This document shows positions 11,530 through 52,726 of a DNA stretch of 64,000 bases, piece by piece; the stretch's first letter is position 1, and each line of letters starts with the position of its first letter. This DNA is from Camelus dromedarius. Taxonomy: Eukaryota. The notes under the pieces are model-generated. The model searched no databases. It saw only the letters and a program-made list of their open reading frames with translations, and had not been told where the DNA came from. The translations under genes were made by a program, and so were the position numbers. Where the stretch lies: NCBI RefSeq assembly GCF_036321535.1, contig NC_087436.1, positions 79,920,001-79,984,000 of the forward strand. Reading direction: 5' to 3'.

Positions 11530-12299
11530 CTGTAAAGGACAGACTAGAAATGAAAGAGAGGAATGGGGAGAGTTGTTCAGAGGAGTCAGAAGAAAAATAT
11601 AAGATTTTATCTTGGAAGGAAGGTAGAAATGAGGAGTATGTAAAGTGTTAAAGTGCTTCACTGATGCTAAAATAACAGTTTTTTAGAGAGAGGACAGATA
11701 AAGGTGAGATCTCTTAACCTTTTTGGTATTTGAGGTCTTGTGTCTATGTAACGGAATTTTAAACCTAATGTAGGGTTTTGGTAAAGACTGATTAGATAAT
11801 AGGTTAATCCTACAAGGTGATTAAGTTGTTCCCCTGAGAAAGGTAGGCAGTTTGGGGAGATGAGTTATTTCTTTCAGACCCTTAGAGTGCCATTTAGTCC
11901 AGCTATTCAAACCCAAAGCCATTTAAAGTGCTTTCTACCACTCAGAAGAAAATTCTAGATAATATCGATAATCAGCACTAATGTCATATCTAGTGTGACA
12001 GGGGATCTAGATGGAAGCAGAGATTGTAAAGGGTCAGAAGTAGGCACACACGGGCAAGGAGCAAGTTCTATCACGGGCCTGGGAAGCAGATTCCTCCATA
12101 AACAATGAGTCCTAAGAACCATTCCCCAGATAGACCCCACATCACCAATTAACGGGCACACCTAGAAACAGGGGAAAATGGGTATTTGCTTGCTTGCACG
12201 ATGATTCATTGATTTCTGTCATCAAAATTTTGCTCAGAGATGGTGGATTTCACCCTGCATTATTTCAAATGGGTGATTTAGCATTTACTATTGTTTTAT

Positions 12300-13370
12300 C
12301 GTTAGGCTCTTCTACATTCTTTGGTTTGACAGTGGAATGCAAGCATCATATTGAGGTTGGGTAGGTGTGTGACTGGGTCCTTTGGGGGCCACAATTCTTC
12401 CAGACCTTCAGACATTAACACATTGGAATGATCAGGACCAGGTGGCATATTCAGTGTCTTCATCAAACCAGTGGAGGTAGGTGTAAGAAGCATGCATGGT
12501 TCTTGCCAAGCCCTACATTAGGTGAACTTAAGTTCAGTATGTCCTTTGTGTCCAGAAGCATCGGCAGGGAGAGAGCTATACAGTCCACAATGGCGATGGC
12601 TGGTCAGAGTCCCAGCACGCAGCTCTAGTGGGTTATATCTAGTATTGGAGCTCAGACAGGAAGAGATAGCCTTGACACCCTATGTAAAGAGCCTGGTCTG
12701 CAAAGCTGCGTACTAGATTTTCACACTACTGAGCTTGGCCTGCAGATTCTGAAGTTTACCAAGTTCTGCTAAGTCCATGTTTCTCAAACGTATTAAAATG
12801 AGAATAAACAGGGGTACTAGTTAAACATGTGTATCTCTGAGCCCCACTCCTAGAGATACTGATTCAGTCAATCTGGGGTAGAGTCTCAGAATCTGGATTT
12901 TTAATAAGTACCCCTACTGATTCGGATGTGGGTGGACTACAAAACACAGTTTGAGAACGTTTGTGCTGGGCAGCCACTGGCAAATGTCATTCAGGTGGTG
13001 GATGAGAGCAGAGAAAGGTACTGAGGTTGAAAAGTGGTGATTTTTATAGGACTGAATGTTCTGGAGTGTGGCTAAGGCTGAATCCAATAATGGGAGAGAA
13101 GGCAAGCTAGTTGATCTGCTGAGACAAGGAATAGAGCCCAGGGTTCTGGTCCAGCTTCTGTTGTTGGTATTTTATCTGGCCATCAGAATTGGAGATGGTG
13201 TGTCAAGGACTGGAGGGCAGGAACACGTTAACTCCTGGAGCATCATGGACAGTGCTTCAGAAATAGGAGATAAACCGAAGATTGCCCAACATGAGGGAAT
13301 GCATCATCTGAATATTTCTGGAAAGTAGAGGATCCCTCGGAATTGGGGCTTGTTCTCAGTTTCTTCCATG
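12300..13370 (-). pseudogene. Fossil Ty3/Gypsy chromovirus integrase (core, GPY/F, chromodomain), degenerate
   Basis: Minus-strand translation: ILYFPEIFR*CIP, RFISYF*STVHDAPGVNVFLPSSP*HTISNSDGQIKYQQQKLDQNPGLYSLSQQIN*LAFSPIIGFSLSHTPEHSVL*KSPLF, TRYNPLEL...HRHCGLY, PPLV/FDEDTEY...VWKNCGP...PVTHLPNLNMMLAFH; colinear with chromovirus integrase motifs. Confidence 0.75.
12775..12963. mobile_element. MER5A (hAT-Charlie MITE), 189 bp, inserted into the Gypsy integrase
   Basis: Termini ccatgtttctcaaac / gtttgagaacgtttg, internal ccccactcctagagatactgattcagt; degenerate 8-bp TSD tgctaagt / tgctgggc. Confidence 0.85.
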
Positions 13371-13419
13371 ATCCCCTCCCAGAGTTGTCCAAAGGCCTAA
13401 AGTTTGGTTGATAAAACTA

Positions 13420-13860
13420 CTGCCATTTTTACTAACTTTGAAAATTAGGTGAAGCTAAAGTTGTCTCTTTGAGCCTTCATATGCTCATCTGTAAAATGAG
13501 TATCATTATAACACACTGGATTGTTGGGAGGCATGGGGAAAATAGCTATAAAACATTCTGTCTACATATGCAGAGGCTCAATAAGAGACAATTCTTGTAC
13601 TTTTTTTTGCCTTCATGAGCATCATGGTGTGGGGGGAAGAACGTGGATTCCATAGTGAGATCTGGCTTGGAGTCTCACCTCTATTACTTTCTAGATCTAT
13701 ATGACCTTGAACTGTTTACTTATCTCTGCATCTAAGTTACTCACTAAAAAAAAAAAAAAAAAGGAAGAATACCTGTCTTGAGTGACTGCTTTGAATATTA
13801 GCAATAATAGAGGAAAAACAAACGCCTGGCATCTTATAGAAATTGATCAATAAATCACTG
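13420..13860 (+). mobile_element. Two tandem MIR SINEs
   Basis: ctctttgagccttcatatgctcatctgtaaaatgag, and atgaccttgaactgtttacttatctctgca...gcctggca...atcaataaat. Confidence 0.75.
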
Positions 13861-13959
13861 CTTCCCTCCCTCTTTCCTTTCTCCTCCTTCTCTCTTTCTC
13901 TTCTTTTCCTGCAACTCCTCTTGCTATTCTTATATTTTAAGGCTCTGAGCTCATGAAAC

Positions 13960-14560
13960 CTGTGGAAAAGGAGCTGGTCTCCCATCCTCATTTCAACTAT
14001 CAGCTTCAAAAAATTGCACAGGGAAGCTGAAAAGAATGTGGATTCTTAAGTAAACATGCCAGGGTCTCCCTGAATTGCTTTCCTAGACAATCTTCTATGA
14101 AATGACTGGCTGGCCTGATTTAATCGTTAGGCTCTCTCCCAATCAGGTCACAAGGTCTGTGCAAGGAAGCTGTACCAGCTCGCTATCAGGTAATGGTCTT
14201 GCAGTCCAAGAATTTTCTGGGTTGATGTCCAAAAGTGCCTGTTTGACGTTCTGGATTCTCCCTGGGTGAGTACATGCAAAGTGCCATCCTCCTTAGTTCT
14301 TCTCATCAATCCTTCTCTACTACACAGGATCAAAGATGGTCAGTTTCTGGGCCAGGAAGTAGGTGTTAAAGTGCTGGAGAATGAACTCATGCCCTTTATG
14401 CTGCAAGGAAACATTTGCCACCTTCCTGAGAAGCCCACACCTTTGGACCTCACAACCTCACAAAAACCCTTCCATTTGATAAGTATTGAACTCTGGTTCT
14501 GTACCTGTGAAGCTAGTCAATCCTTTTTCTATAATTTGGAGGGTGATGGTGGAGATCTGA
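13960..14560 (-). pseudogene. Fossil Ty3/Gypsy (Sushi/RTL-like) gag capsid region, degenerate
   Basis: Minus-strand translation SPPSPSKL*...QNQSSILI...RSKGVGF, ILQHFNTYFLAQKLTIFDPV**RR, EELRRM, LTQG, RKAIQGD, EMRMG follows the Sushi-type Gag motif order P-P-KF..NQC..SKVGF..FDDP..LRQG..AI-ID..PMQLG. Confidence 0.65.
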
Positions 14561-14829
14561 GAACTAGCAATGAGGACTGTTAGCCACCACCAGTTAAAGA
14601 AATCTATAATTACATACCAGAGCTGAGGAAGTAGTTGCCAAATGTCAAACTGAAGAGTGTTATTAGGAGCTAGAATTAAGGGCTATGGTTGGGTCATTGG
14701 AGAACTCCAACAGATTCTGTAGGAGAGCATCCTCCATGCTTGTAGACATTCAGATTGGTCACTTTCATGAGTTGCATGTACTGTGCTGTGACAAGTAATA
14801 TATCAGAACCATGAACAAGTCACCATTCA

Positions 14830-15440
14830 AAGTCAAATTCAAGACATTTCCTTGGAAATGCCAAGCCCTGAGCCAGATGCTGAAGAACATCGGTCAGACG
14901 CAACCATATTCCATACCCTGTGGTGACTCATGGTCAATTGAGAAATGTGTTCATTTAGCCAGTACTTCTAGCAGGCCACTGATCCAGGAGCAGAGGATAT
15001 AAATATGTAAGATGCCTTGTCCCCTCTCAGGCTTAGAGGGGCCACATTAGGCAGAGATTGGCAAGTGAGGTGAAGAAGCTAGACAGTAGAGAACTGCATG
15101 TAATAGAGGGGAAAAAACTACGCTTTAAAACCTTGCCTTTGTAGAAGGAGGTCTGGTTGGAGAAAAACACAAGGTCACTGCCAGCACTTTGTACTCCTAA
15201 GAAGTACAGAGCCCTGTTGTTTAGCTGAGCACCCGACATATTTCTGATATGGAAAGGTGGTAGGAGATCTGGAAAGAACTGAAATTCTCTTCGTGATCGG
15301 CGACCAGAATGTGGAATTCAATGGGAATTTAGGAAGTAGGATGTGAAAAGACAGCAGGCAGAAGAGGCAGGAACCCCGATGCCTTTCAGAAGAGCCTGCC
15401 TGGGGTTGGACAGCCAGAAGACAGGACACAATGCCTATTA
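14830..15440 (-). mobile_element. L2 fragment(s), heavily diverged
   Basis: Purine-rich antisense L2 pattern (ccctgagccagatgctgaagaaca...ccctgtggtgactcatggtc). Confidence 0.55.
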
Positions 15441-15473
15441 GTTTATTTTATTTGCATTTGTAGCTATATATCT

Positions 15474-19791: not shown

Positions 19792-21029
19792 GAGGGGAAG
19801 CAGCAACTCAGAGGATGATGACATGTTTACCTCTCAGCAATTAGGCTATCAAAGCAAAACGCTGATAAGCTGACTTTCTCAGCTTCAACTGAGGTTTGCA
19901 TTCAATTTGGCTTTCTGCTAAGGTAGAGTCTTTTACGATGTATTTTTATTAGATTAAAATAACAGAGCAATCTCAGGACTAAGCATATTTGCTTTCAGAA
20001 GTCCTTTCTCCAACACCTCCCCTTCAGCCTCACAAACATGTTCAAAGTTGAAATTTTTGCATTACTTTACAGAAGAACACACAATTTTTATTCAGATTTG
20101 ATCCTACTTTCTCTTTATGACCATCCAACTTATTCCCTGGACACAGAATTAAAACAATGAAATTCCCATTAGTGCTCACATTCATTAGTGAAAACATCTA
20201 AAGTTTCAGACTTTTCTTTAACTGAGAAATTTTCAAGACTGCTCCCCAGAGAAACTGCACAAGGTCACTGAGCGCCTCATTAAAGGGCCTGACCCTCGGG
20301 AAGGTGTGAAGAGGCTTTCTTCCAAAGATGATATTTTCACTACCCCACATGGAGTTCTACTTCCATAAATAAAACAGCCTAACTTGAGTAAGTCAGGTCA
20401 TTTAAAGCCAATGTCCCGACACTGCAGGCTATGCTGAACAGTGTAGGGAGATGTATGGATGATGCAGCCAATATTTCGAATGAAAGAAAGGTACTGAAAG
20501 GGACTTTTCAATAGCACCTTAATAAGCCCAAGAGTGGCTGAGCAAAACATTTATTTGAAAATGGCTGTCTTTTTTGAACAATAAATACTGGGTCAGTTGA
20601 TTCAGATTCTAGTCAAAGTTGGGACATAAATATTATTCATTTCCAAATCTCAAAAGCCAAACTCATTGCCTGGCATTCAAAAATCATTTAATCAACATTC
20701 GATGAATGAACGAATCAATCAATCAATGAGAGAATATATTATACGCTCTCTAACCTTCCTTCTTATTCCTCAGCTGGCATGCTGGATGCTACATGTCAGC
20801 CAGTCCTTAACCAAGTCTTGATTTGCTACAGCATGATGTTGAAAATTAGAATTGTGACTCGACTCAGTGACTGAGTTTTGAAAAGCACATGTTTCCTTTT
20901 GCCCCTTGCTTCCAAACTGTTACAGCCTGGATACTGTTAAATGTTAAGTGAATCGTGTTCTTGAAGGCTAAACGGAAAGACACGCCATTCTGTAATCATG
21001 ATTTGGCTCCTACTATGTTTTTCCATATT

Positions 21030-24000
21030 CAGAATGATAATGGCAGAGAATGCTCATGAATTGATGGAAGATATGAACTCCTAGATTGTAAAAGCACAAT
21101 AAGTTCAGAGAAATACAAATAAAAATAAGTTCAAAAAGCAGAGAATTTGTAAACCATTAAAGCCAAGTAGAAAAAATATACAAACTCTATTAAAAAAAAG
21201 ACAGATTACTTTAAAAAAATAATAAACTTCTCATCAGCAACACTAGAGGCCAAAGAACAATGGAATACTATTTTCCTAGTGTTAAACTATCAATTAGATG
21301 GGAGGGGAAAATAAAGATATTTAGACACATACTGAGAGAACTGACCACACAGATATTCACTCTAAAGAGTACTAAAGGATATACTTTAATAAGAAGGAAT
21401 TAAAATTAAGAGGAAAGAGTGGATTATGTGAAGTAATGTAATTGAATTGGTTAAGTATGAAAAAAATTTAATAAGCATTGAGTTTTAAAAATGATAAAGA
21501 CAAAAATAGATGGATATTTAAAATGAGAAAAGATAAAAATGTTAGAAAACAATGACATGGATATAGGAGTTGGTGTCTAAAGTTAAAGTAATATGAGTCT
21601 TCAAAACTGTTTGAAACAAGTATAGAGATGTTAACTTTAGACTTTGTTTTAGCAAATACTTATGTTAAAATTTTAGGGAAAGCCATGAAAATTACAGGAA
21701 TATGAGATATAATTTCCAAATTAGTAGAGAATAGGAAAAGAAGATTTAAAAAATAAATAAATCTAATGAATAATGGAAATTATAAATAAAATGCATATCT
21801 AGAAAACACAAAATAAACTAACAGCAATCAGGCTTGTTAGGCCAGTAATCATAATATATGCAAGTTAAACTTCATGGTTAAAGAAAGGGACTCAGACTGG
21901 ATTTTTAAAATCTAGTAATATGCCATTTATAAGTGACAATGGATTTTTAAAAGAAATCCAAGTGTGTGCTATTTATAATAGGAAATATGTTGATACTGAA
22001 AATTTGAAAATTAATGAAAATTGAAGTATCTCAGAAAAATAATTAAAAGAAAAATGTTGCCATATAAACACTAGAAAAATATAACTTAAAGTAAAACCAT
22101 TATTAGAAATGAAAAGAGTCTTAATTTCATGATAAAAGAGAAAGTTACCAGAGAGACCTAAAAATCCCAAGCCTGCCTGCACTAAACACTAGTAGACTTG
22201 GACTAGTCAAACAAAAAATTAGCATAATTACAAGTAGAAACAGAAATATACATAATGACATCAGAAGATTTGAACATATCTCTCTTGGAAATTAAAGCTG
22301 CAGCAGCAGCCAAAACATAGTAAAAATACAGAAGATTCAAATAACACACAAGGAAAAATTCATTTATCAAGAAGGATTGTATCTAAAGACATATAAACCT
22401 ACATTTGGAAAACTTTTCTAAGAAATCTTTGTAAGCCATTCAGGAAATCTCAAAAATGCCAAATAATTAATATAAGTCTGAACAATATTCTTTCAGTACA
22501 ATACAGTAAAACTAAAAATTAATAAAAAGAAAATACCAAATCATGAGTCAAGAAGTAAATCAAACTAGAAATGATATTAACAATAGAAGCACAATAAAAA
22601 CGCTGTGAATCAAAATTTGTGTGATACAGCTAATATGACATTTAAAGGATACATTCATAACTGTTTCTAAATGTACATTAAAAAAGAAGGAAAGCTGAAA
22701 ACTACTGAGCAAAGTACAACTTGAAGAAGTAAAAATATTCACAGCAAAATAAGCCTAAAGAATGTATATAAGAGGAGATGGTTAAAATAAGAGCAAAAAT
22801 TAATATAGTTGAAGATAAGAATCATTAAAAAAATCAACCAAATCAAAAGCCAGTTATTTGGAAAGACAGAGTAGCCAAACTCTGCCAAATGTGCCCAAGG
22901 TGAGGGTGGCAGGGAAGGACAGTATATCAGGGAAAGAAATCAATATTGGGAAAAGAAAAGAGAACATACCTACTGATTTTAAAAAAGATCACATAAGAGA
23001 GACTTAGGAATAATTTTATGCTAATAAATTTGAAAATGTATACAATATGGATAAATTTGTGGAAAGAAGCATAAATGACAAATTTTATTCAATAAGAAAT
23101 TAAAACCCTGAACAGAATTATAGTCATTAAAGAAATTAGATTAGTCATCAAAACTTGATCCCAAACAGAAGCAAAGGGCCCATATAATTTTACAGGTGAG
23201 TTTTACCAAACTTCCAAGGGAAAAAACCCTCTACTTATATAAACTGTCATGTAAACTAGAGAAACAAGAAAAGCTCTCCAGCTTAATTTGTGAATGCTAA
23301 TATGTACTTCATAAATAAACTGGGTTAGGAAAGAATAAGAAAGAAAACGTATAAACTATTCTCAATTATAGAAGCAAAAGTCCTAAATAATGTACCAGTT
23401 AACTATTTCAGTAACATATTTTTAAATTAATTATGACCAAAGATGACTCACCCTAGAATTTAAAGAATGATTTAGCATTAAGAAATCTACTAAGTAATTT
23501 AATACATTAACCCACTAAAGGTGAATTTATCATCTCAATTAGTGCAGAAAGAATTATTACACAAAATTTAACAATCATTAATTGTTAAAAAAAAACTTAT
23601 ACCTACAAGAAATTGGAGGGAGCTTCCCAAACCTGTGAAAGATATTTAACAAAAGCCTCTAATACAGATGCCCTTCAGTAGTGAAATGTAAAGCTCAAAT
23701 TCTTTAAAGTCAAGGTAAAAGGAAATATGCTCATTATCATTACTTCTATTTAACCTTGTATTAAATGTCCTAGCCAGTGTGATAAAGCAAGAAAAAGAAA
23801 TAAAACATATATAAGAACTTTATGAAGAATATTAACTATTGTGAAAGGAGATAAAGGGAAGCCTAAATAATAAAAGATATATCATGGAATATATAAAATA
23901 TGCAGTATGTTCATATATCAAAGATATATCGTGGAGTGGAAAAGTCAATATCATAAATAAGTCAATAGTCCCCAAAGAAATAGAAATCCACTGCATTTTC

Positions 24001-24250
24001 AAAAACCTTCAGTATTTTTTTCAAATACTTGATGAGTTGAAATTAGAACTAAAATAGAGCAATAAATGGCCAAAAATTGCAAAAAAAAAAAAAGATAAAG
24101 CAAGAGGATCATCCTACCAGACAGCTAAAAATACTGATAATATTTAATAGTAAACAATTAAAACAGTGTGATAAGCATAAGGACAGACAAGTAATCTAAT
24201 GGAACAGAATATAGCACCTATAAGAATGCATAACTGATGCTCCAAAAATG
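21030..24250 (+). mobile_element. ~3.2 kb old L1 (ORF1 end, ORF2 endonuclease and RT), degenerate
   Basis: A-rich; RT motif remnant atcatctcaattagtgcagaaa (IISIDAEK-like), tacaggtgagttttaccaaac, gtcctagccagtgtgataaagcaagaaaaagaaataaaa. Confidence 0.85.
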
Positions 24251-25329
24251 TAAGTTCTGCAAAGCAGGTAAGTAGAAGCTGCCAATTCGTGTGGGCAGGG
24301 TGGTAGCAACAGGCCAGCTTTCTGTTTAGCATGGATGGTACTTGTCCTGCCACTCTCATCCCCAACACTCATGGACAATTCTAGAACTTGTATTCAACTG
24401 AAGGAAATCACACTGTCTCTGCCTCAGGACAGGATATAGTGACATCTGAGTAAAACCCAAAGGTGAGTGTTCATTCGGGAGCTGCTCCAGGCCTACCATC
24501 ACAAGGCTCAGTCATTAAAGCCATCCTAGGGTCCAATACTCTTCTGCTCCCAGAATAGCCCCGCAAGGCAGAAGCCACTGGCATGTGGCAGCTCAGATCA
24601 GTAACCCATCTTCAGGGGCAGGGGCGAGTCTCACTCAGAAATGTAAAGCCGACAAAGCTGGTTTTGACACCTGTCATGGTTCATCACTCTGTCTTTCCTT
24701 CTTTCTGTCCAGATCGCCTCTTCACTCCATAAATATCTGCTACAGGAAAAGAATATGGTATTGCTAAGTCTCATTCCCTTTAAGTCAATAAGGAAATTAA
24801 AGGCTTTTTAACATTTTAAAATCATTAAGGTATTAGCATGATAGAATTTTTTTTGATGGGAAAAATGGTTTCCTCCTCTGTCTATAATGTGTTCAGGATG
24901 GGTTGGGCCTCCTAGATCCACTCTGTACATGATACAGAATGGGCATTTCCCCCATTATATTCATTAACTTAGCACAGTCTTCTGAAATGTGACAATCCTC
25001 TCACAGAGTCCATTTCACCATTTGTCATTAATTTAGTACTGGAGCTGTTCGGGGTGGGGGGGATATTCAGTTTTTCATTCATTAATTAACCCATACAATC
25101 GATTTAGATTGCAAATCTACAACATTTGAGGTCCTGTGCTAGGTGCTAGACTAAAGATGAGAAATAAACAGTCTCTGCCTAGTTATCACAGGAAGATAAG
25201 TAATGATTATAGTCAAGTACTCTACAGAGGAATAATTTCAGTGAGGAGTGTTGGAATTATTATTTATAAATGAGAGTTTCACTATTCAACATATTTAGAT
25301 CATCTGATAGGAGGATGTTAGTTAAAAAG

Positions 25330-27660
25330 ACATTATTACAGTCTTTCTCTGAAGCCCTCAAAACCTCATAAATGTAGAAAGCTGGAATAAGCGTTACTCC
25401 AGCCCTTAAAATAAGAAAAAAGCCAGACAAGTGGCAAATTAACAGCTTTCTTGAAGCCATCTGAGAACTGAGGATTCAACAACTAAAGCTGCAATCTAGA
25501 GAGAAACAGGTACCTGTGGGTAGGAACAGGGCCTGAATATTTGCTCACCTGGGCAGATACCACTGGATTCATATAAGCTCTCTCTGGTGAAAAAAGTCTT
25601 AACCTTTAGAGGAGAGAGCAACAAAACTGTCACTACAGTAAAGTGGTTGAAACCCACTGCATCTGGAGTAAGCGAACAGGAGAAATAACAATGTTCCCAC
25701 TCTTTGGGAAAAGCAGGTACATGCTAAGCCTAGCACTAGAGGAGGAGCACTTAGAAAGACCCCAGATTCTGAGTATCTGCCTTGGACCCAAGTTTAATCA
25801 TGACATCAGAGAACAAGCACTTCCTGTCCCATACTTCCTACCATGACGCTAACAAATGCTGAGCAAAAATAGCAGTGAAATATTCCTGAAAGAGCTGCAA
25901 GAGGCAGGTTCTCTCCATTTTACAGATTTAGACAAATCAAACCCAAACAATCAGAATGAAGGAAACAATCAAATAACCGATTACGACGTTAAAGGCTCTA
26001 ATGGAAAAGTTAGACAACAGGTACTGAAAGAGAGGCAATCTCATCAGAGAGATGAAACTATAAGAAAGGATCAAATGGAAATATTAGAAATCAAAGGCAC
26101 AGGAACAGGGATGAAGAGTGCCTTCAACAGGCTTGTTGGGAGACTCAACATGGCTTAGAAAATAACCTGTAAACTTGAAGCTAGGTCAGTAAGATTACCC
26201 AAAGTGAAATGAAAACTGAAAAACCAAGCAGAGTATTCAAGAGATGTGGGACAATATCAAATAGTCTAACATACACATCATTGGTCTTCCAGGAGGAGAA
26301 GTGAAAGAGAGGATGAGGTGGAAGTAACATCTGAAAAAATAATGTATGAGAATTTTCCAAAATTGATGAGAGACTCACACAAAACAGATCCAAGCAGCAC
26401 AGAGAACAAGCAAGATAAATACCTAAACACACCAAGACATATATTCAGACAAAAATGCAAAAATATTTAAATTATAAATAAGAGAAGTCCAAACCAATAT
26501 TCCTCATGAACATAGATAAAAAATCCTCAACAAAATATTAGAAAATTGAATCAAGGGATATATTAAAAAGATAATACATCATAACTAAGTAGGGTTTATC
26601 CCAAGAATGCAAGGCTGGTTCAACATTTAAAAATCAAACAATACAATCCACTATATTAGTAGACTAATTAAGACAACCCTTATGATCATGACAATCCATG
26701 CATAAAAAGAATTTGACAAAATTCAAAATTCATTCTTGACCGAAAAAAAAATCCTTCTTAGTAAAGTAGGAATAAAAAAGGAACTTCCTTAACCTAATAA
26801 GAGACATCTAAAAAAAACCTTACAGCTAACATCATACCCAGTGATGAGAGGCTGAATATTTTCTCTCTAAGATGGGGAACAAGGCAAGATGTCCTCTCTC
26901 ACCACCCTGCTCAGCATTGTGCTGGAAGCCTTACCCGGTGCAATAAGGAAAAATAGGATTGGAAAGGATAGGAAGAAATGAACTGTTTCTATTTGCAGAC
27001 AACATAATTGTCTACTGTGAAAATCCCAAAGAATCTATAAAAACGCTTCTAGAAATACTAAGTGAGTTTAGCAAGAACATTGGCTACAAGGTCATTATTA
27101 AAAAGTCAACTGCATTCTTGTATACTAGCAATGACAAATTGAAATTTGAAATTGAAAATCAATACTATTTACAATAGAATCAAAACAATAAAGTAGCTAG
27201 GTATAAAGGAAATGAATGTGTGCAGTTTGTAGTTTCCATACGTTGAAACATACAAAACATAATGAAAGAAATAAAAGAAGAAATAACTAGAGAAATAAAA
27301 TGTGTCCATGGATTTTAAGACTCAATATTGTTTAGGCTGTAGACCTACAGATTCAATGCATTTCTAATCAAAATCTCAGCAAGCTCTTTCGTAGATATTG
27401 ACAAGCTGATTCTAGGATCTACCTGGAAAGGCAAAGGAACTAAAAGTGGCAAAATGACTCTGGAGAAGAAGAGCAAGTTGTTGAATTAATAGTATTATAC
27501 TTGTGTTACTTTCTTAGTTTTGATAAATGCATCATGGCTATGTAAAATGTAAACATCAGAAGAAAATGAGCGAAAAGGATAGGGGAACTCTATACCATCT
27601 TTGCAATTCTTCTAAAATCATAAAGCTAAAATCATTTGAAAATAAAAGTTTAAAAAAAAT
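25330..27660 (+). mobile_element. L1MD/MC-like element with 5' region, ORF1 part, internally deleted ORF2 and 3' end
   Basis: ORF1-like QMEILEIKGTGTGMKSAFNRLVGRL; RT ccaatattcctcatgaacataga, gggtttatcccaagaatgcaaggctggttcaaca and LFADNIIVY..NPKES. Confidence 0.9.
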
Positions 27661-29669
27661 TCAAGTCGATTTCCACTGCCCAAATTGGTGAATTCTTGGA
27701 AACCGAAATTGGTAATCCCAAACCTGATCTTCTGGTTAAGCCACAAAACTGCATTTTGCAGATGGGCATTTGCAGAGGGGCTGAGGCAACATCCTGTGTC
27801 TTGTCGACCGGTTTTCTCCGCTCTCCACCTCCGCATCAGCCCTGCGATGGCTCTGCTGAGGACACTGGCAGTCAGAAGAAGACAGCGCTTGTGCCATTGC
27901 TCATGCTTTCCATGTAAACAATTTTTCCCTCATCCTGTTTTCCTTAAAACTTTGACCTAATTTCTTTCACATGTTGAGCTAATTCTCATGACTGTTTAAA
28001 GGCAGCTAAAAATACCAGTAAGGTCTGCTGAATTCAGAAATGAAGACGCCATTCATTTAAGTGCTGCACACTTGAGTCATTATTTCTTTAAATGCATGAC
28101 ACAAAAATGTTCCTTTCTCTCTCCTACTGATAGTTTTACATTAAGACGTCATTAGAAAGCAGCATCTGGGCTACTCGTCAAACCACACAAGCTGAATTCA
28201 TTTTTTTTCCCCTTCACTAAATGGATTTTCGATTAGCAATAATAATAAGGAGCAATGTGTGGTGTTCAGGAGACGTAACTGGCTGCTTTCAAAGTAAATC
28301 TTGAAGTCCAAATGATCCAGTTGTTTCCGATACTTCACAAAGGCAACATATTTATTCCTCCAGAAAGTTAATGCATTTTCCGGTCCATTTCTCCATAATC
28401 TTGACCCTTGGGCATTTCTTCCTACACAGGAGCATTTGTTCCTGGAGAGGCTCCTCCCAGGCAGGCCCAGAGACACAGGAGGTAAGGAAGAAAATAAGAC
28501 AATATAGGTTTACTAAGTTGGAGATGCACCCTTGGTTTCTTCCTCCATGTTTTCTTCTACAGTCATCTTACCCATTCCATTTCTACTAACAGAGAAGCAA
28601 CAAGGCTGATGCTTTGGGCAGAAAGATTAAATGCATAGGAAAAGATCTTTATTTGCTAACAGAACCCATCAAAATAAATATGACTTCCAAATAATCTGAA
28701 GATCAAATAAGTTAGCTTTTGCCAAGTGCAAAGCAGGCAATTTCCTTGCTCAAAGTCTCTGGTCTCCCCTCTTTAATGATTTTTTTCTCATCTCCGTTTA
28801 GCATCCTTCTTGATTCCAGAGACAGCACTTTCTAGCTCTGTGCTCCCCATCAAAACGTACTTTCAGGCAAAATCTGCTATCATTCACTCACACTTTAGTA
28901 TGAATTGAAGTCAATAGGTCACCACCTTCAGAAATACCTGCATTTTGAAACTGAGTCCTAACTGAGGAATAAGTGATATTTTCCCAAGATTAAGAGAATT
29001 TTAGATATTGATGATCCTAAGAGAGAACTGAACAGGGGCTAGACAAAGAGGAACCATACTGCAGTCCCAGAAATCTGTCTGCCCCAAGGTTGGCATAAAT
29101 GAAAACACTTGAAGGTGTTTTTTAATACTTACTGTAGTTTCAGGTTAAATCATCAGGGCAAGTATTATTTTTCCTTCTCTCATTACTCACCTTGTTGTTA
29201 CTTTAATCTTGGTTCAGTTTGACAAATGAGGATTTTGCCAGGGGGTTAAAGAAGGAATGAGCTGAATTCCACCCATCTGATGTCCTCCCAGGTCTAACGT
29301 GCCATATGGTTTGGCGCAGTGGCACTTCCCTCCCTTCTAAAACACCCCTTTGCTTGTGTGGCATCCATCATTTTGCTTGTTGACTTAGTTTCATTTTCTG
29401 TTTTTCTGGCCTGCTCAACTGCCTGTAACAGCATTAAATTATTCTTGTGATCTCTCTGTTTCCCTGAGTTTGCAAACTGGAATTTATGGAAGTCTTTAAA
29501 CCTAAAGAGTTTTCTGATAATGGTAGATGCCAAGAAAGTGATAAAGGTCAATGGAAAATTGTACACCTTTAGGAGGCAACACCCTTCAGACATGCTATAC
29601 TCTCCTTTTTCACGTGAGAAGGAAATATTACTATCTGTAGAGACGTCCATACAGAAATTTAGAAATAAA

Positions 29670-37397: not shown

Positions 37398-37442
37398 GTG
37401 CGCGCACGCGCGCGTGTGTGTGCGCGCGTGCGCACGCATACA
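37398..37442. repeat. Alternating purine-pyrimidine (CG/TG/CA) tract, Z-DNA-prone
   Basis: gtgcgcgcacgcgcgcgtgtgtgtgcgcgcgtgcgcacgcataca. Confidence 0.9.
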
Positions 37443-42199: not shown

Positions 42200-44094
42200 T
42201 ACCAATTTCCTTACCTCCAAAAAATAATAATAAACCCACAACAATTAGCCCTGAATATAGATGTATTCTGGAGTGTTCTCGGAAGCTGAATGCCATACTG
42301 TCTGTGTGTTGGGAAATATTCTGAACTCTCAGCGGGGAGGCAGCCCTGCAGCTCCAGTGCTAAAGAAGGGGACTGCCAATGATAAAAAACAAATCTTCAA
42401 AACGTAGAGCAGTGAGAAAAAGTCTCTAGCTGTCCTGTGCCGGGAAGCACAGATGTCTAAATATACAAACATCCTACTCTTAGGGGATAAATATTAGTCA
42501 AAAGGATCTCTCCTTGTCTCAAAAACTGATCCACGTTGCTAGAATATTGTGGAGAGCTGGTTGAGAAGACAAGAATGCTCTTAGAGATGAAAACAGATGT
42601 TAATTTTTCCTCTTTTTTCTGGAATTCAGTCAAGCAATCTCTTAGGTGCATGCTTTCTAGAATTTCTCCGTATTTTAAGAATTCAGTCTCCCATTCATCT
42701 CTTTATTTTAGCTTCTTCCTGAGAGAAAAGAACAAGTTGGAAGGGACTCAGCCCCTAATACAATGTCTGGCAAGTAGCAAGTGCTTCATAAATGCCCATT
42801 GAATTAGGTGTTTGATGAAGTCAGGAAAGTTAACTTGTTTATTTTACCAGAAAAGAAAAAGAAAAAAAAAATCCAAGAGAAGCTCTTTACCTATGAAACA
42901 GTACTGTCAGGAAGCCCAAAGTGGGAATAAAAGCTTGATAAGTCTGTAGAAAAGCCCTCTGACTCAAAGGGGACCTTTCCTTGAAAAAGAATGAAATAAT
43001 AATTTGAGTAGAGGCTGGAGGAGGCAAAAGGGCAGCTCTGTTTCTCACAGTCACTTGAGAGGCAGGGTCCGTCCAGCTTGGGCAATGCCCCGGCCACCAC
43101 CACAGTGCTGGGCTGGTGCGACAAGTACCAGGGACACTGCCTGTCATTTTCACTGATAATTATAAGTCATAGCCTTTATTCCACCATAAACTCCACCCCG
43201 TGGAAGCAAGTCTTCGCCCACCCTGTGCAGCAAGGATGTCGAAGGCTCATTATTTCTGCTCAGTCAGCTTCAGCCAATGTGTAAATATTGAAGCAAGTCT
43301 AAGGAGCCAAGGAAAGGAATGATGATTACTCCATTAATACTAATGAGTGGAGTGGAGCTGGGAATGTGTTTAGCTAACGTTGCCACTGAAGCAGATGACT
43401 TAAAAAGGAGAGAAAAGCCACAGGATGATTATTGATTTAAAAAAAAATGACCAAGACATAAAATCCACATGAGGTAAGAATTAAAGAGAGAAAGAAAGAT
43501 TATGGTCGTAGGAAATCTGTGTGTGTGTTTTATGCTCAGTTCACTCAAAAGACTCTGTGTGGACTCCGGTAGGCTAATACTACATACCAATGTGAACGAT
43601 CCACAAGCAACTTTTTGTTTTCCTCCCCCTCATTTACAGCTTTTCTTGGTACATAAAACAGCTGTATACAGATCAATAGCAAATGCAGACTTATCAGTAC
43701 ATCCCCTGACTTCTACTGAATGGATGCCGAAGGATCCAGAAGGGAGTCTGGAAGGGTGGAGTTGGAGGAAAGGGAACCTAGGAGAGAATATAATGACAGC
43801 CATGTGAACTTATGAAAGTCATTTTTCCCTTGCACCTCATTCAACGTTGTAACACCATCCTTATCAAACCCACCCCACACTCAAACAAAAAGCCATTTAT
43901 TTGGGAGTGGACATGGTGCTTATTTACTTTGAGGGGTCCGCTCCGTATTCAGTGGTTGCAATACCCCTTCACATCCCGCAGTTTGGAATGCTGGCACTTC
44001 AAAAGAAACTAAATTTCTTGCGACAGTATTTAAGACTATACCCTAAGTTTTGGGGTTTTTTTTAAGTAAATATAACCCCCAGATTCTGCCTGAG

Positions 44095-44445
44095 CTTTAG
44101 AGAGGTTTTGCCGGCGGGATTTCCTTTTCCTCTATGGAGCATTGCGGGCTTTCTGAGCCTGGCCTGAGCTCTGCTGCGGGCGTTCCAAGCCCGTCAGCTG
44201 TCGGCGTCCCCAAGGTCCAGGCGCTTGAAGCAGACACACAGCGCTCTACCAGCGGGAGGCGGCAGCCGCGCTTCTCTCTGCGGACACAGGGAGGCAGTGC
44301 GGGAAAGCCCGGCTCCCGCAAGCCGGAGGCCTTCAGAACGCCGCTGCCAGCTGAACTACCTTTCCCACTGTTCAAGTCCTAAGGGCTCCTCGGTTGCTTG
44401 TTTAACTTTTATAAAATTAAGAATTTTCAACGAAAAAGGTCAGGC
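44095..44445 (+). promoter_or_regulatory. Small CpG island / putative promoter or enhancer with Rel/NF-kB-like sites
   Basis: Abrupt GC/CpG enrichment in non-repeat sequence; CGGGATTTCC (44115), GGAAAGCCCG (44302); donor-like AAG|gtcagg at 44438. Confidence 0.5.
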
Positions 44446-44639
44446 AGCCTGACCAATGAGACAAAAAAAATTTTTTTTTCTTAATGATTGTGTGTTCGGG
44501 GATCATGACACTGTAAAAGACAGCAAAAGTGGCAATTATTTAAAGCAGTTTTATAATTGATAATAGAGCCTGTATCCAACATCCAACACCCAGCAGTCAC
44601 ATACCTAGAGTTTCCCGGCGAATCCTGTCCTCCCGAGAG

Positions 44640-46920: not shown

Positions 46921-49432
46921 CTGAACCTTTAAAGCTATCTTAAGTTACAATCACTCATGTGATGAATATTTGCTACATGTTTTTGAACAGACATTGTGCA
47001 CCTGACACTGCATTAGATGCTACAGTAATAGAAGAGTCAGAATCGCAGTCCGTATAGCTCCTACCATCTGGAGAAGAACACGAATATCATTTAAAATTTT
47101 TTTGAAGTCAAATGGTTCATAGGATGGTGTGCAGGCATGCAGACTTTGTTGTTGGAGATTTCATATAACCAATGTCATATTACCTTTAAAGACTCTTTTT
47201 CTTGGATGCTTTGTTCAGATTTGAAATACAAAATTGACTTACCATTTTGCAAATGAGCCCTAGGAATTCATGAAAGTAGAAGTCCAAACCAAACACATAG
47301 TAACTTTGGGAACAGCTGCTCACAGTTTGCTTTCACTATGACTTCTAGCATCCCCTGACCCAAACCCACAGCATCCTGCATAGACAAGCATGGTTGGAGC
47401 ATGGTCTGACATCACTGTACCCGGTCGCTGCTTCCTTGACTAAGCTTCTCACAACGGGTGCTTTGTGTTTCTGAAGTGACCGCTTTAAAGGAAAGAATGA
47501 GATTACACAAAGTCATCCAACAACCTTATCAAGAAATGTGTCACACACACAAAAATTTCAAATTGGGGAACTACTTACAGTTAAATCCTGCTTTTCAGTC
47601 TGAATGGAATGCAGGTCCTGAAAATTTTCTCCATATGTCCCATAGTTTATAATCAAATCATTCAAGAGAATTACCCATATAAGCTTAAAATGTTGCTTCT
47701 CATATTGCCTCTTTTTAATGTTTTATCTAAATCTTCTCCAGCATATTTACAATAAATTATACAACCAGATACATTGCACATTCATTAACTGACCATGTGT
47801 GGAAAACTCAGACACTGAGCCCAAGTTAATAAAATACTCATAAATTAAAATTTGGCCACAGGATTTTTTTTTCAGAATTGACTGACAATTTATTGATAGC
47901 TCCCTTAAAATTCCTGACTATGCCAGCTTAAAGTATCATATCGTTAATGTGATCATATTTTGCTGATTTTCTGCAGACGCTTGTGCTGGCTTAGTCTCCA
48001 ACTGCTTTTACTGCTCACTGAGGCCAGCCAAGAAGCACTGAGCATACGCATGGACTAAATCACCGTACTTCTCCTCTGGTAACATCAAATATATACAGCA
48101 GTCATCTGTCTCCTTTGATCTTCAGCTAGCACAAACCCTTTCTCACTGAGTTGTCCTCCATGGTTTGTTTTTGATGTTTAAACAGTTTGGACATCTCAAA
48201 AATGGAGTGACATTGACATCGAGATAAGGTGCCAATCAATTTATTAAGTGATTTTGTACAAAAATGGCAAACTCCACATGACCCTGGAGCATGACTGATT
48301 CACCCAGCAGGAAGCGTGAAGAAAGCCATCCATCTGTTCTTGTCCCTCTTCGCTGAGGACACGAACCTAAAGCTCTTCTCTGGGGTTGGAGCTATCAAAA
48401 CTCAATAGAAATGATAAGTTTTTTAATGTTTAAAATTTTAATTAATAGGCGTTAGTAATATTTCTTATTTCTACATTTCTTTTTTTAGTTGAATTATGGA
48501 TATAGTGTCCCCTCATGAGGACATGTTCCCTGTCATTACAAGGGACAATCTGTTCTTCTAAGATGAGATTTCAATTTTTTTTTTTAAGTGTGGAAAATTT
48601 TATTAACATTAAGTTTAAAAAGCTTTACACCCGTGGTACACCAAGAGAAAGGGGCTCTTAACAAGTGCCTCCTTAGGGTCTAGTCTCTGGTTTAGAAGTT
48701 TCAGTTAGAAGTTGGCAAACCAAACTTATCACAATTACACTAAATAATTTCCAAAAAGGGAGAAATGAGGTATAAAATGCAAATATGTTTCATTTATCTC
48801 AACACAATGCATCCTGGGTAGCCTAGCGATAAACCCAGCCTAAGACTGCTGAATGTTTTCAAAGCAAAGTACATAATGTCTATGTAAATAAGAACTATGG
48901 TTCCCTTTATTTCTTATTCTATGTGAATGCCAAAACAATAGATTATTTTGAAATAATGTAACAAAAAATTAATATGACCTTTAGAAATCATTGTTTCTAA
49001 TAAAATAGCTAACTCTCAGAATGAATTGGCCTGTCTCCCAAGACCAATTTTACACAAGGTAGACTCAATCATCCGTGTGTAGTAGGACCAAGGAGCAAGT
49101 ACAATTTAAAGCAGTTGCCTACTGGCCAAACACAGCAAAAAACACTATGGACCCACTGACAGTTTAGTTAGACTGCCACGTTTAAGGGATAGATCAGAAA
49201 GAGAAATTACTAAACACAAAGAATGATCAGGGAAATAGTTGGAGAATATTATATAATAAAAGTCAATTAAGGTAGGAACTACAAGATGGCAGAGTCCAAG
49301 AAATGATAAGAATAATTCAATTATTATTGACCTCTATGCCCAGACAATATAGATTATTCCAGTTCCCAAGAAGGGAGGTTTCTGGACCTGAAAACATCCC
49401 TTTACCGTCTTCCAGGCTGCACACAACCCTCT

Positions 49433-49883: not shown

Positions 49884-52726
49884 CCCCGTCCTCCTGAAGT
49901 TGCACCATAATGACAACCGTTTGACATCCACCACTGCTGATCTCCAGGCAGGATGATTCACCAGCCAAAATGACAGCTTTGAATCAAGCTGCCCTTGGTC
50001 TCTTGCAGTACTTACAGGCTGTCTCCTAAACTGACCTTTCTCCGCACCCCTGCCTGGTCCACCCCCTGGTGAACGGCCTAGAAACAAGGAGGGTGTGGGC
50101 AGTGGGTGCGTGTATGACCCACCTAGCAAGGGAGGTGATGTCAGGGGCTCGGGGTGGGCATCTCAAGTTTGAACTGTCCATCACTTATATCATACAATCA
50201 GCACTTCAACAAATATCTACTGAGAGCGTGTTATGTGTTAGTCTTTGTGATAGACACAAAAGGGTACAGCTGTGAACAAGACAGACAAAGGAACTACTGC
50301 CACGGAGTTTATGTTCTAACCTGATTTCACTCAACTGCATGCAAATAAATCTTTACTAAATGAGTCAGTCAAGAGAGTTTCATCTTGCTTACACTGAACT
50401 TTGAAAGAGCTGGATTCCACACGTGATTGGGAATGATTCGAACAGCCTTTTAGTTAATATTCATCTTCTGTAGACACTTTAGTCCAAATAAGTTGATTTA
50501 CAGTTTCTCCAAGGCTGACCTGAGAGGATAAGTTACCATACCTCCTCCGATAAGTGTGCTAGTAAGCGTGTGTGTGAGACAGAGTGGGTAGGACCAGGAC
50601 CAGAAACGTAAATTATGCTGCTAAGACTTACATGTGCAGCTGGTATTTCTATTGTCTTGTCTCTTATGACAGTGCCCTCCTCTGGAAGCCGTTAGGATAA
50701 GAGCTAATGTCGGCTGTGCCACACAAAGGTGATGGCGAATTGATGAGCCTGTAAAGAGATTCGAAGGCGAATAGGGAAATGCATTGTTAATGCTATTAAA
50801 TATTACTTAGCCTACAGCAAGCTGCATGTTCAACAGTTTAAACTTTAATTGCTAGCTGATGCAGAAACAAGCCTGGGTAGATGTAAATCCTATTGAAAGC
50901 TAATATCATTTTGGCTGCTCAGATGGATTAGCAGCCACTACAATTAGCAGCATGTGCAGCTAATGATATTAGGGGAAAATCCATCATGCAGCAGTCTGGG
51001 CCTTTAAATCTGAAAAGAAGTTAAGGCTCTTCGCCCCAGAAACCCCCTACTGGGAAGTCTTGCCAGTTGATGCAGCAGATTCCAGGGGTGAGCCAAGAGG
51101 CTTAGAGAATGCAGGAGAGTGACTCCACCATCACCTTGAGTCGGTCCTCTTTATGCCCTTGACCAGTTGTCCCCGCTAAGCACACTGTGGCCAGTGCTGC
51201 CACCTCCCTGTTCTCCAGGGAGGGGCACTGGATTGCAGAGTAGAGGCAAAAAGATGAATCCACAGTTACGGAACACATGGTTCACTCTGGCTACTGTGGT
51301 TATGATAGGAGGAGAAAGAGTGGGGGTTCTTCTCCAATGTGGCACCACCCGAAGCAGATGGCTGTACAGGGCACTAACTAAGATGTTTATGACTCTGTAA
51401 GACAGCCCCAGTGAAGAGTTCTCACTTAAAACCTGACTCTTTTAGGGTAATCGTGGAAACTGACTTCTTTTTAGTTCTGTACCAGTTCTATAAAAATAAA
51501 CACTTATGATGCCCTTTGAGGTCACCGACTCTAAGGTGCAATGGAGCGTCTATGGTGAGATGTGATTCCGTCTCCTTGATTAGATGGTAACCCTTCCATT
51601 CCTAAAGATTTACATTCTGACCCTGATAAATATTAAAATCAAAGTACTTGAAGGAAGGACTGGCCTTTCTTAGTGAAATTTCTAAAATATGAAAGGTTGT
51701 GGATTCATTAACCTAATTGTAAAAATCTACTATAGTTATAATAGCACAGCACACATAATTAAGCTAAAAGGCCATTTACAAATAATTTTAAATAATCTAA
51801 TTTTTAAAAGAGAACTGTTTCATAATTGAAATTCTAAATGCTTGTATACAGAACCATTAATATCTGGCTCTTAATACTACTTATTTTAGACAGATTCATC
51901 ACAATTATAAACCTGAATTTTTAACTAACAAAAACCAAGTATACACACAAATTCTGAGTTTTTAGCAGCAATTAGTTATGTCTTTCCTTATTACTATCCC
52001 GGGAGCGGTAATTATTAGTTTGCTTTTTGGAAGTTACAGGAAACTGAGCTGTTTAGGAAGACAGAGGCTTATGAGTTGTGTATCTAATTGGTTTTGTAAA
52101 AGTATTTTTGTGGCTGGCTTTTCTGCCCTTGTTATCAAGACTGTAGGATGGGACCCACCTTAAATATATTTCATACAAGGAACTTATGCTACAAGAAAAT
52201 GATGAATAAAGGTCTAATGAAATAAAGGTTAGGCTCTTCTTTTCTTTCCCATCATTTAAAAGAAACTTTTGCCAATTTTGCTCATCTTGAATTTCTTCTA
52301 TAGGGATCTCATCTCAGCATGGACAGCAGGCCTAAATGAATAACTGTTATTACAGAGTGAAGATGATTGGCTGTCATAAGCAATCCCTTCATGTTACTTT
52401 GAGAAAGCTATACTCAATAGAGGTTCAAACATGTCCACTCTAATGGAAGCTTCGATCCCATTACATGCACTGCTCGATTTTTCATACTGAGATGACTTTA
52501 GAGTTTTGTTGGGCTAAAGAAAATAGATGGCGTTTTCCATTAATACAGTCTTTTTCACAATAAATTAGTTGATATCAAAACTTTCCTCTCACCAGCCCTT
52601 CTCTTTACACTTCCGTTAAAGAGAGTGGGATCTGAGACACATGAGATATCAAGTCAGAGGAATGATCTAGTGACAATCTTTGCATATATCAGGAGCCATA
52701 ACAGCAATTAAAAGGGGCTACATTCA

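Follow-up and report, generated by a model that had tools for sequence, protein, structure and literature searches.

Layout of the locus

The locus lies within a window of 64,000 bases (G000:C1:79920001-79984000), the whole stretch of DNA analyzed here. The genome searched is the assembly to which it belongs, with a total of 2.3 Gb over 171 contigs. Read along the minus strand, it begins with a candidate Gag capsid region (13980..14580), passes through two dispersed repeats, and reaches the C-terminal two thirds of a chromovirus integrase catalytic core (13029..13277). The integrase match continues over 12963..13028, is interrupted by a nested DNA transposon of 189 bases (12774..12962), and appears to resume in a degraded C-terminal tail with a GPY/F region and a chromodomain remnant (12307..12773). 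Direct inspection finds every motif named in an earlier sequence-only reading in its place on the minus strand, spread over three frames. On the Gag side these are PPSPSKL (~14552), RSKGVGF (14450), ILQHFNTYF (14382), LTQG (14270), KAIQGD (14081) and EMRMG (13994); on the integrase side they are LYFPEIFR (13330), SDGQ (13187) and KSPLF (~13043). The plus strand holds the antisense shadow ORFs that the same reading described, at 13056-13328 and, stop to stop, at 14194-14583.

Standard searches return little at this locus. Twelve frame translations with stops written as X gave nothing relevant in Pfam, only two weak unrelated matches, and a PDB search produced five matches, all irrelevant. Rfam recorded no match over the window. 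A set of 150 Gypsy polyproteins, collected using RTL1 of the same genome, reached a best tblastn E-value of 0.066 in the window, away from the locus, compared with 0.048 in the reversed window. Home-built integrase, Gag and POL profiles were run with hmmsearch: the top window hit of the integrase profile, built from 62 sequences, was 13277-13014 at an E-value of only 1.7, and Gag stayed at background. Single-protein profiles were discarded as evidence, with scores inside the decoy range. A genome search with the polyprotein P0177, a stricter first look, gave 54 matches, chiefly to integrases of ERV type (23-30% identity) and to RTL genes, with none at the locus.

The surroundings were searched for host genes through 150 of the 156 stop-free frames of at least 66 aa. 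The sole match, below the cut-off, is a reverse transcriptase (RT) fragment at 26947-27174 on the plus strand (PF00078, E 7.8e-6), within an A-rich stretch at ~20500-28000, and is probably an old L1. No CpG-rich stretch adjoining the locus was found; the highest CpG o/e of the window, 0.79 at a GC content of 0.50, falls at 44001-44500.

Chromovirus integrase core, with a putative tail and chromodomain

The integrase core emerges under a scoring model of our own construction, which treats codons under neutral decay and allows frameshifts, stops and local composition. With an unweighted profile of 55 of 88 motif-filtered chromovirus integrases, near-duplicates removed, the core scores 34.2 bits, against 13.4-19.9 in 40 shuffled windows. 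Adding CpG decay afterwards raises it to 39.8 bits, against 13.8-19.8. None of 358 real tiles reaches the score, and the genome-wide expectation is ~3e-5, a rough extrapolation from a Gumbel fit to 40 points. This strong score depends on the unweighted decay-aware model, which was picked after weaker variants had been tried: entropy-weighted profiles give the core 17.5-23.3 bits, little different from an artefact of a purine tract at 37400, which the reversed window shows too. HHalign, which is independent of the decay modelling, aligns 83 columns of the core with a score of 34 and a probability of 44%, equalled by none of 90 decoys.

Comparison of profiles defines the type of the enzyme. Three non-overlapping training sets all detect the core, at 28.7 bits for tetrapods, 26.5 for fish and 34.2 for other eukaryotes, each equalled by none of 178 tiles. 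In these comparisons, which rest on local-mode scores, chromovirus profiles reach 25.7-34.2 bits against 7.7 for five non-chromoviral Gypsy integrases and 5.8 for six ERV integrases, both at background. The sequence-only reading had proposed a Sushi-like Ty3/Gypsy chromovirus integrase, and this assignment is both supported and specific: the core is real, of chromovirus type, and exceeds chance. Over 13277-12963, 25-31 of 97 aligned codons are identical to P0177, P0178 and P0022, and the traceback reaches profile column 255 of 415.

The core is thoroughly broken. Stops lie at about 13259, 13205, 13109 and 13046, and one or more small indels occur near 13200. The catalytic triad is no longer intact, with the first Asp region absent, the second Asp unalignable and the Glu position substituted. 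LYFPEIFR, also read earlier as integrase, marks the probable upstream edge of the core (13278..13340): it is colinear in a low-penalty traceback, but the stretch above 13280 adds no significant score (132-148 of 512 tiles equal or better). An N-terminal-half match at 13438-13313 was rejected as not significant and partly within a MIR-like repeat, and a zinc-finger candidate at 13665-13600 was dropped because 166 of 178 tiles equalled it.

Behind the core, the nested insert has inverted ends at 12958 and 12789 and five other copies in the genome (E 8e-8 to 7e-6); it is presumably MER5A-like. A tail-plus-chromodomain profile of 52 sequences, anchored behind this insert and scored with the CpG model, is matched as well by 0-18 of 680 overlapping tiles over 24 settings, and every one of the 24 alignments stops at 12307, staying in register beyond the insert. 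When the CpG term is dropped, 9-36 of 340 tiles do as well, and 73-97 of 338 when the insert is bridged. HHalign places four of 90 decoys at the level of the tail. Scored alone, the chromodomain is not significant (17-20 of 294 tiles), and PF00385 has no match on this contig. Its best register is 12417-12326, which superseded an earlier one at 12539-12438 once the model spanned the whole domain. From the core motif to the chromodomain Trp there are ~198 codons, against 218-223 in 11 relatives. By these alignments, a putative integrase tail and chromodomain extending down to 12307 are moderately supported.

Other integrase fragments occur in the same genome. A second chromovirus-type fragment, about 150 bases of the GPY/F region with two stops, lies at L037:1492-1644 (G000:C18:28199826-28199957, plus strand) and scores 48.7-51.5 bits (Pfam PF24626, E 0.93). 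The fragment is isolated: neither core, Gag nor chromodomain signal appears within 1.5 kb of it, and its DNA does not significantly match the window locus. At L019:1504-1674 (G000:C4:84016567-84016719, minus strand), a stop-bearing fragment of an integrase zinc finger (Pfam PF17921, E 1.6e-9) matches no further than the finger; it could represent one more Gypsy relic instead of an ERV.

Candidate Gag region, gap and possible termini

Evidence for the Gag region comes from order and spacing. Columns 6-185 of 200 in a vertebrate Gag profile can be aligned to 14580-14110, with most of the path in a single frame, at ~22% identity and with LTQG at the L.QG position. From LTQG to EMRMG there are 92 codons, against the 100-116 that precede the matching motif in relatives. 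Among Gag peaks on the minus strand between 11.8 and 17.5 kb, the best ends at 14039-14088 in seven of eight settings. The three segments are also alike in composition, with GC of 0.44-0.47 and CpG o/e of 0.10-0.19, compared with 0.34-0.38 and 0.21-0.35 in the flanks.

The proposal that a Gag lies upstream of the integrase thus agrees with colinearity by eye and with spacing, but it passed no statistical test. In glocal mode, 8 to 89 of 256 tiles score equally or better over 11 settings; in local mode, 175-224 of 256 do; and HHalign ranks it behind 5 and 17 of 90 decoys. The profile peak at the locus ranks 4-44 among peaks of the window. The top background peaks, at 47900-48500 (minus) and 50400-50980 (plus), translate into sequences with no recognizable Gag motifs and were treated as noise. 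Individual motifs also shift in meaning. KAIQGD probably does not belong to Gag, since the sole L.QG position falls to LTQG in profile alignments, and the N-terminal Gag motifs first proposed lie in a different frame from the path of the Gag profile. With its scores within background the Gag region is unproven, and it is rated somewhat more likely genuine than not.

Between the two parts lies a gap of ~550-640 bp, near the ~550 bp estimated earlier, and it shows no signal for protease, RT, RNase H, the integrase zinc finger or the region of the first catalytic Asp. The absence of PR/RT/RNase H noted before is thereby borne out. The gap had been described as almost entirely MIRs and low-complexity sequence; two pieces do match dispersed repeats. 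The first, presumably MIR-like, probably occupies 13385..13590, where 13426-13556 matches other copies (E 5e-4 and 5e-6). The second, also taken to be MIR-like, spans 13615..13906 and includes a poly-T run next to a purine tract. Its stretch at 13708-13898 resembles a further copy elsewhere in the window (E 0.005), TRF reports tandem repeats at 13746-13762 and 13877-13906, and a MIR profile misses it.

In 11 relatives that carry RT, 850-1033 residues separate L.QG from FRLHG, against 955 bases at the locus, about half of them repeats. The locus falls so far short of its relatives that at least 2 kb would be missing, if the Gag is real, and a single copy gives no date for this loss. DNA searches with four adjoining stretches matched only the locus itself in the genome. 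Such searches are insensitive at this age, and they tell little about copy number because even the MIR-like repeats were missed in one of them.

Possible LTR remnants on the minus strand enclose these segments, a 5' candidate at 15068..15448 and a 3' candidate at 11815..12195 that align with each other. The pair is equalled by one of 100 shuffles. Against real tiles its standing is unstable: it ranks 3 and 4 of 416 in two scoring schemes and falls outside the top five in a third scheme and in all reciprocal tests. DNA searches found no other copy of the 3' candidate. The sequence at 14945-15130, which separates the candidate 5' LTR from the candidate Gag, is presumably an L2 3' end.

Origin of the remnant and its place among mammalian Gypsy relics

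The pattern of damage points to long neutral decay. The best-fit distance is ~0.3 substitutions per site plus CpG loss, a rough figure from segments chosen by alignment, and three stops are seen over 72 codons where neutral decay predicts 2.9. The best Gag frames contain five stops over ~157 codons and the integrase frame five over 105, and no sign of constraint on either as a reading frame emerged. The active period of MER5A and MIR fell before the eutherian radiation or close to it. Because inserts taken to be of these families sit inside it, the insertion is probably more than about 100 My old. From this one sequence, neutral decay, silence and lack of function are most likely.

The preferred explanation, given a probability of about one half, is a single chromovirus insertion that decayed and later lost ~2 kb, leaving the Gag remnant, two MIRs, integrase core, tail and chromodomain. 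Under this account, a chromovirus-clade Ty3/Gypsy LTR retrotransposon would have integrated in minus-strand orientation in the genome of a placental-mammal ancestor and then died. Neutral decay by about 0.2-0.4 substitutions per site, together with CpG loss, would have followed, while a MER5A-like element entered the integrase tail and MIR-like inserts were gained. An ordinary deletion after insertion would have removed ~2 kb with the protease, RT, RNase H and integrase N-terminus. The remnant would make no protein and have no function.

A first rival concerns the Gag region. Possibly, only the 3' fragment with integrase and chromodomain is real, and the upstream "Gag" is unrelated old sequence with chance motifs, so that no junction exists. 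Gag scores at background throughout, a peak rank of 4-44, and the disagreement over N-terminal frames all fit this doubtful alternative, as does L037, which shows that isolated chromovirus fragments consisting of a GPY/F part exist in the genome. It sits poorly with the recurrent end point of the best Gag peak, with the 92-codon motif spacing, and with a Gag-region composition that matches the integrase segments. The lack of a POL signal in the gap would fit a different history, in which the element was already internally deleted and non-autonomous (LTR-Gag-integrase-chromodomain-LTR, ~3.6 kb) and was mobilized by the RT of intact partners. The weak LTR-pair signal at plausible positions is compatible with this, and the database proteins P0177 and P0182-P0184 carry Gag and integrase without an RT domain. 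Yet these proteins have the look of spliced gene models, repeats that arrived later occupy the junction, no N-terminus is left on the integrase, and DNA search, insensitive at such age, found no paralogue with the same junction. A non-autonomous origin is considered unlikely.

Less likely again is that the locus once served as an RTL/SIRH-like gene after domestication, or as a non-coding exaptation, and either died late or still survives in mammals other than this one. That it is still recognizable after so long a time, its Gag-first layout typical of RTL genes, and the fate of RTL3, described in PMC11011659 as a pseudogene in Bovidae and Carnivora, speak for such a past. The open reading frame expected of an RTL/SIRH gene is absent, with all frames broken. 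The stop count equals the neutral expectation, old eutherian repeats lie inside the coding region, and no CpG-rich stretch lies alongside. The locus is not among the 11 DUF4939 matches in the genome, none of which is on C1, and the 12 frame translations gave no DUF4939 match. No protein relative was found among 141 candidates or 327 stretches of metagenome contigs, both weak tests. DNA similarity to eight RTL/SIRH loci of this genome does not rise above background; PEG10, one of the eight, scores 78.6 where shuffles reach at most 63, although its match lies antisense to the PEG10 ORF. The earlier suggestion of a dead RTL-like gene is thus disfavoured by stop density and by this lack of similarity. 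Scarcely credible, finally, is that chance, or the tuning of the model, accounts for the entire resemblance. Standard tools gave no significant match and several model variants were tried, but the integrase score is unmatched by 358 real tiles and 40 shuffled windows, has a rough genome-wide expectation of ~3e-5, holds with three non-overlapping training sets, and agrees with the independent HHalign result. For the integrase core, a chance origin is largely refuted.

Genes presumed to be domesticated relatives are present elsewhere in this genome, where the names RTL1, PEG10, RTL3, RTL5, LDOC1 and RTL8 are assumed from resemblance. RTL-like genes cluster on C37, and a pair of identical matches on C37 and C38 looks pseudoautosomal, in keeping with the karyotype of camelids. 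Four RTL8-like copies with equal scores and alternating orientation lie within 35 kb (L003-L006, G000:C37:14.63-14.67 Mb). An open 503-aa frame at L015:1090-2601 (G000:C37:55.4 Mb) is presumably an RTL3/ZCCHC5-like gene, intact here although PMC11011659 lists RTL3 as pseudogenized in Bovidae and Carnivora. L007 (G000:C32:19305332-19305640, plus strand) lies on a contig of autosome size, matches DUF4939 with a single stop, and is likely an LDOC1/RTL8-type pseudogene copy.

Among known systems, the closest counterparts are the Sushi-like chromoviruses of fish, amphibians and lizards, for example P0178 of Anolis, P0169 of Podarcis, and P0165 and P0170 of Xenopus. They share the integrase core motifs and their order with the locus, carry their chromodomain at the terminal position where the locus has its putative one, and have a tail length within about 10%. 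Unlike a working chromovirus, the locus has all frames broken and lacks PR/RT/RNase H and the integrase zinc finger, while its LTRs and Gag are candidates. The missing POL signal is consistent with deletion, and clade placement therefore derives from the integrase, whose alignment indicates descent from a chromovirus. The profiles do not single out a sub-lineage, with 33-34 bits from a fungal/algal-rich profile beside the tetrapod and fish values given above.

RTL/SIRH genes come from the same retrotransposon lineage (PMC3670739), yet they keep open frames, whereas the locus is broken, lies on C1, and retains integrase core and chromodomain signal; the RTL1 locus reaches only 21.9 bits with the same integrase profile, at its acidic tail. 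Kokosar and Kordis 2013 (PMC3670739) describe rare, highly fragmented Metaviridae fossils as all that mammals keep; with no intact Metaviridae there, the transposon source of the RTL/SIRH genes of placenta and brain is inferred from fish, frog and reptile elements. For human, a six-frame HMM search recovered metaviral capsid genes of which 24 are intact and two are pseudogenes; other mammals yielded a few degenerate matches (PMC11011659). Table 4 of Kojima 2018 (PMC5753468) lists MamGyp-int with MamGypLTR1-2, X1_LR-X4_LR, LTR85, LTR88 and LTR104_Mam as mammalian Gypsy relics. Like them, the locus is old Gypsy internal sequence in a placental genome. Literature searches showed no description of the locus itself, and the supplements of PMC3670739 (table S2, file S2) and PMC11011659 may list mammalian remains. 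A more ambitious and rather improbable view holds that the footprint of a whole element (LTR-Gag-integrase-chromodomain-LTR) at ~15450-11815 records an uncatalogued chromovirus family, possibly moving RT-less and still active in stem therians or eutherians, with L037 as a second trace. If true, the genome would bear direct testimony to the lineage that gave PEG10, RTL1 and other RTL/SIRH genes, and would date both its activity and chromodomain-guided targeting.

Undomesticated chromovirus fossils with integrase and chromodomain would show when the lineage was last active, and they escape Pfam, tblastn and six-frame HMM searches of the kind used in PMC11011659. Two chromovirus fragments came to light in this genome without a systematic search, and a decay-aware scan may therefore find more. 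The locus most likely does nothing in itself. As a fossil, it belongs to an already described class, the fragmented mammalian Metaviridae remains reported in PMC3670739 and PMC5753468.
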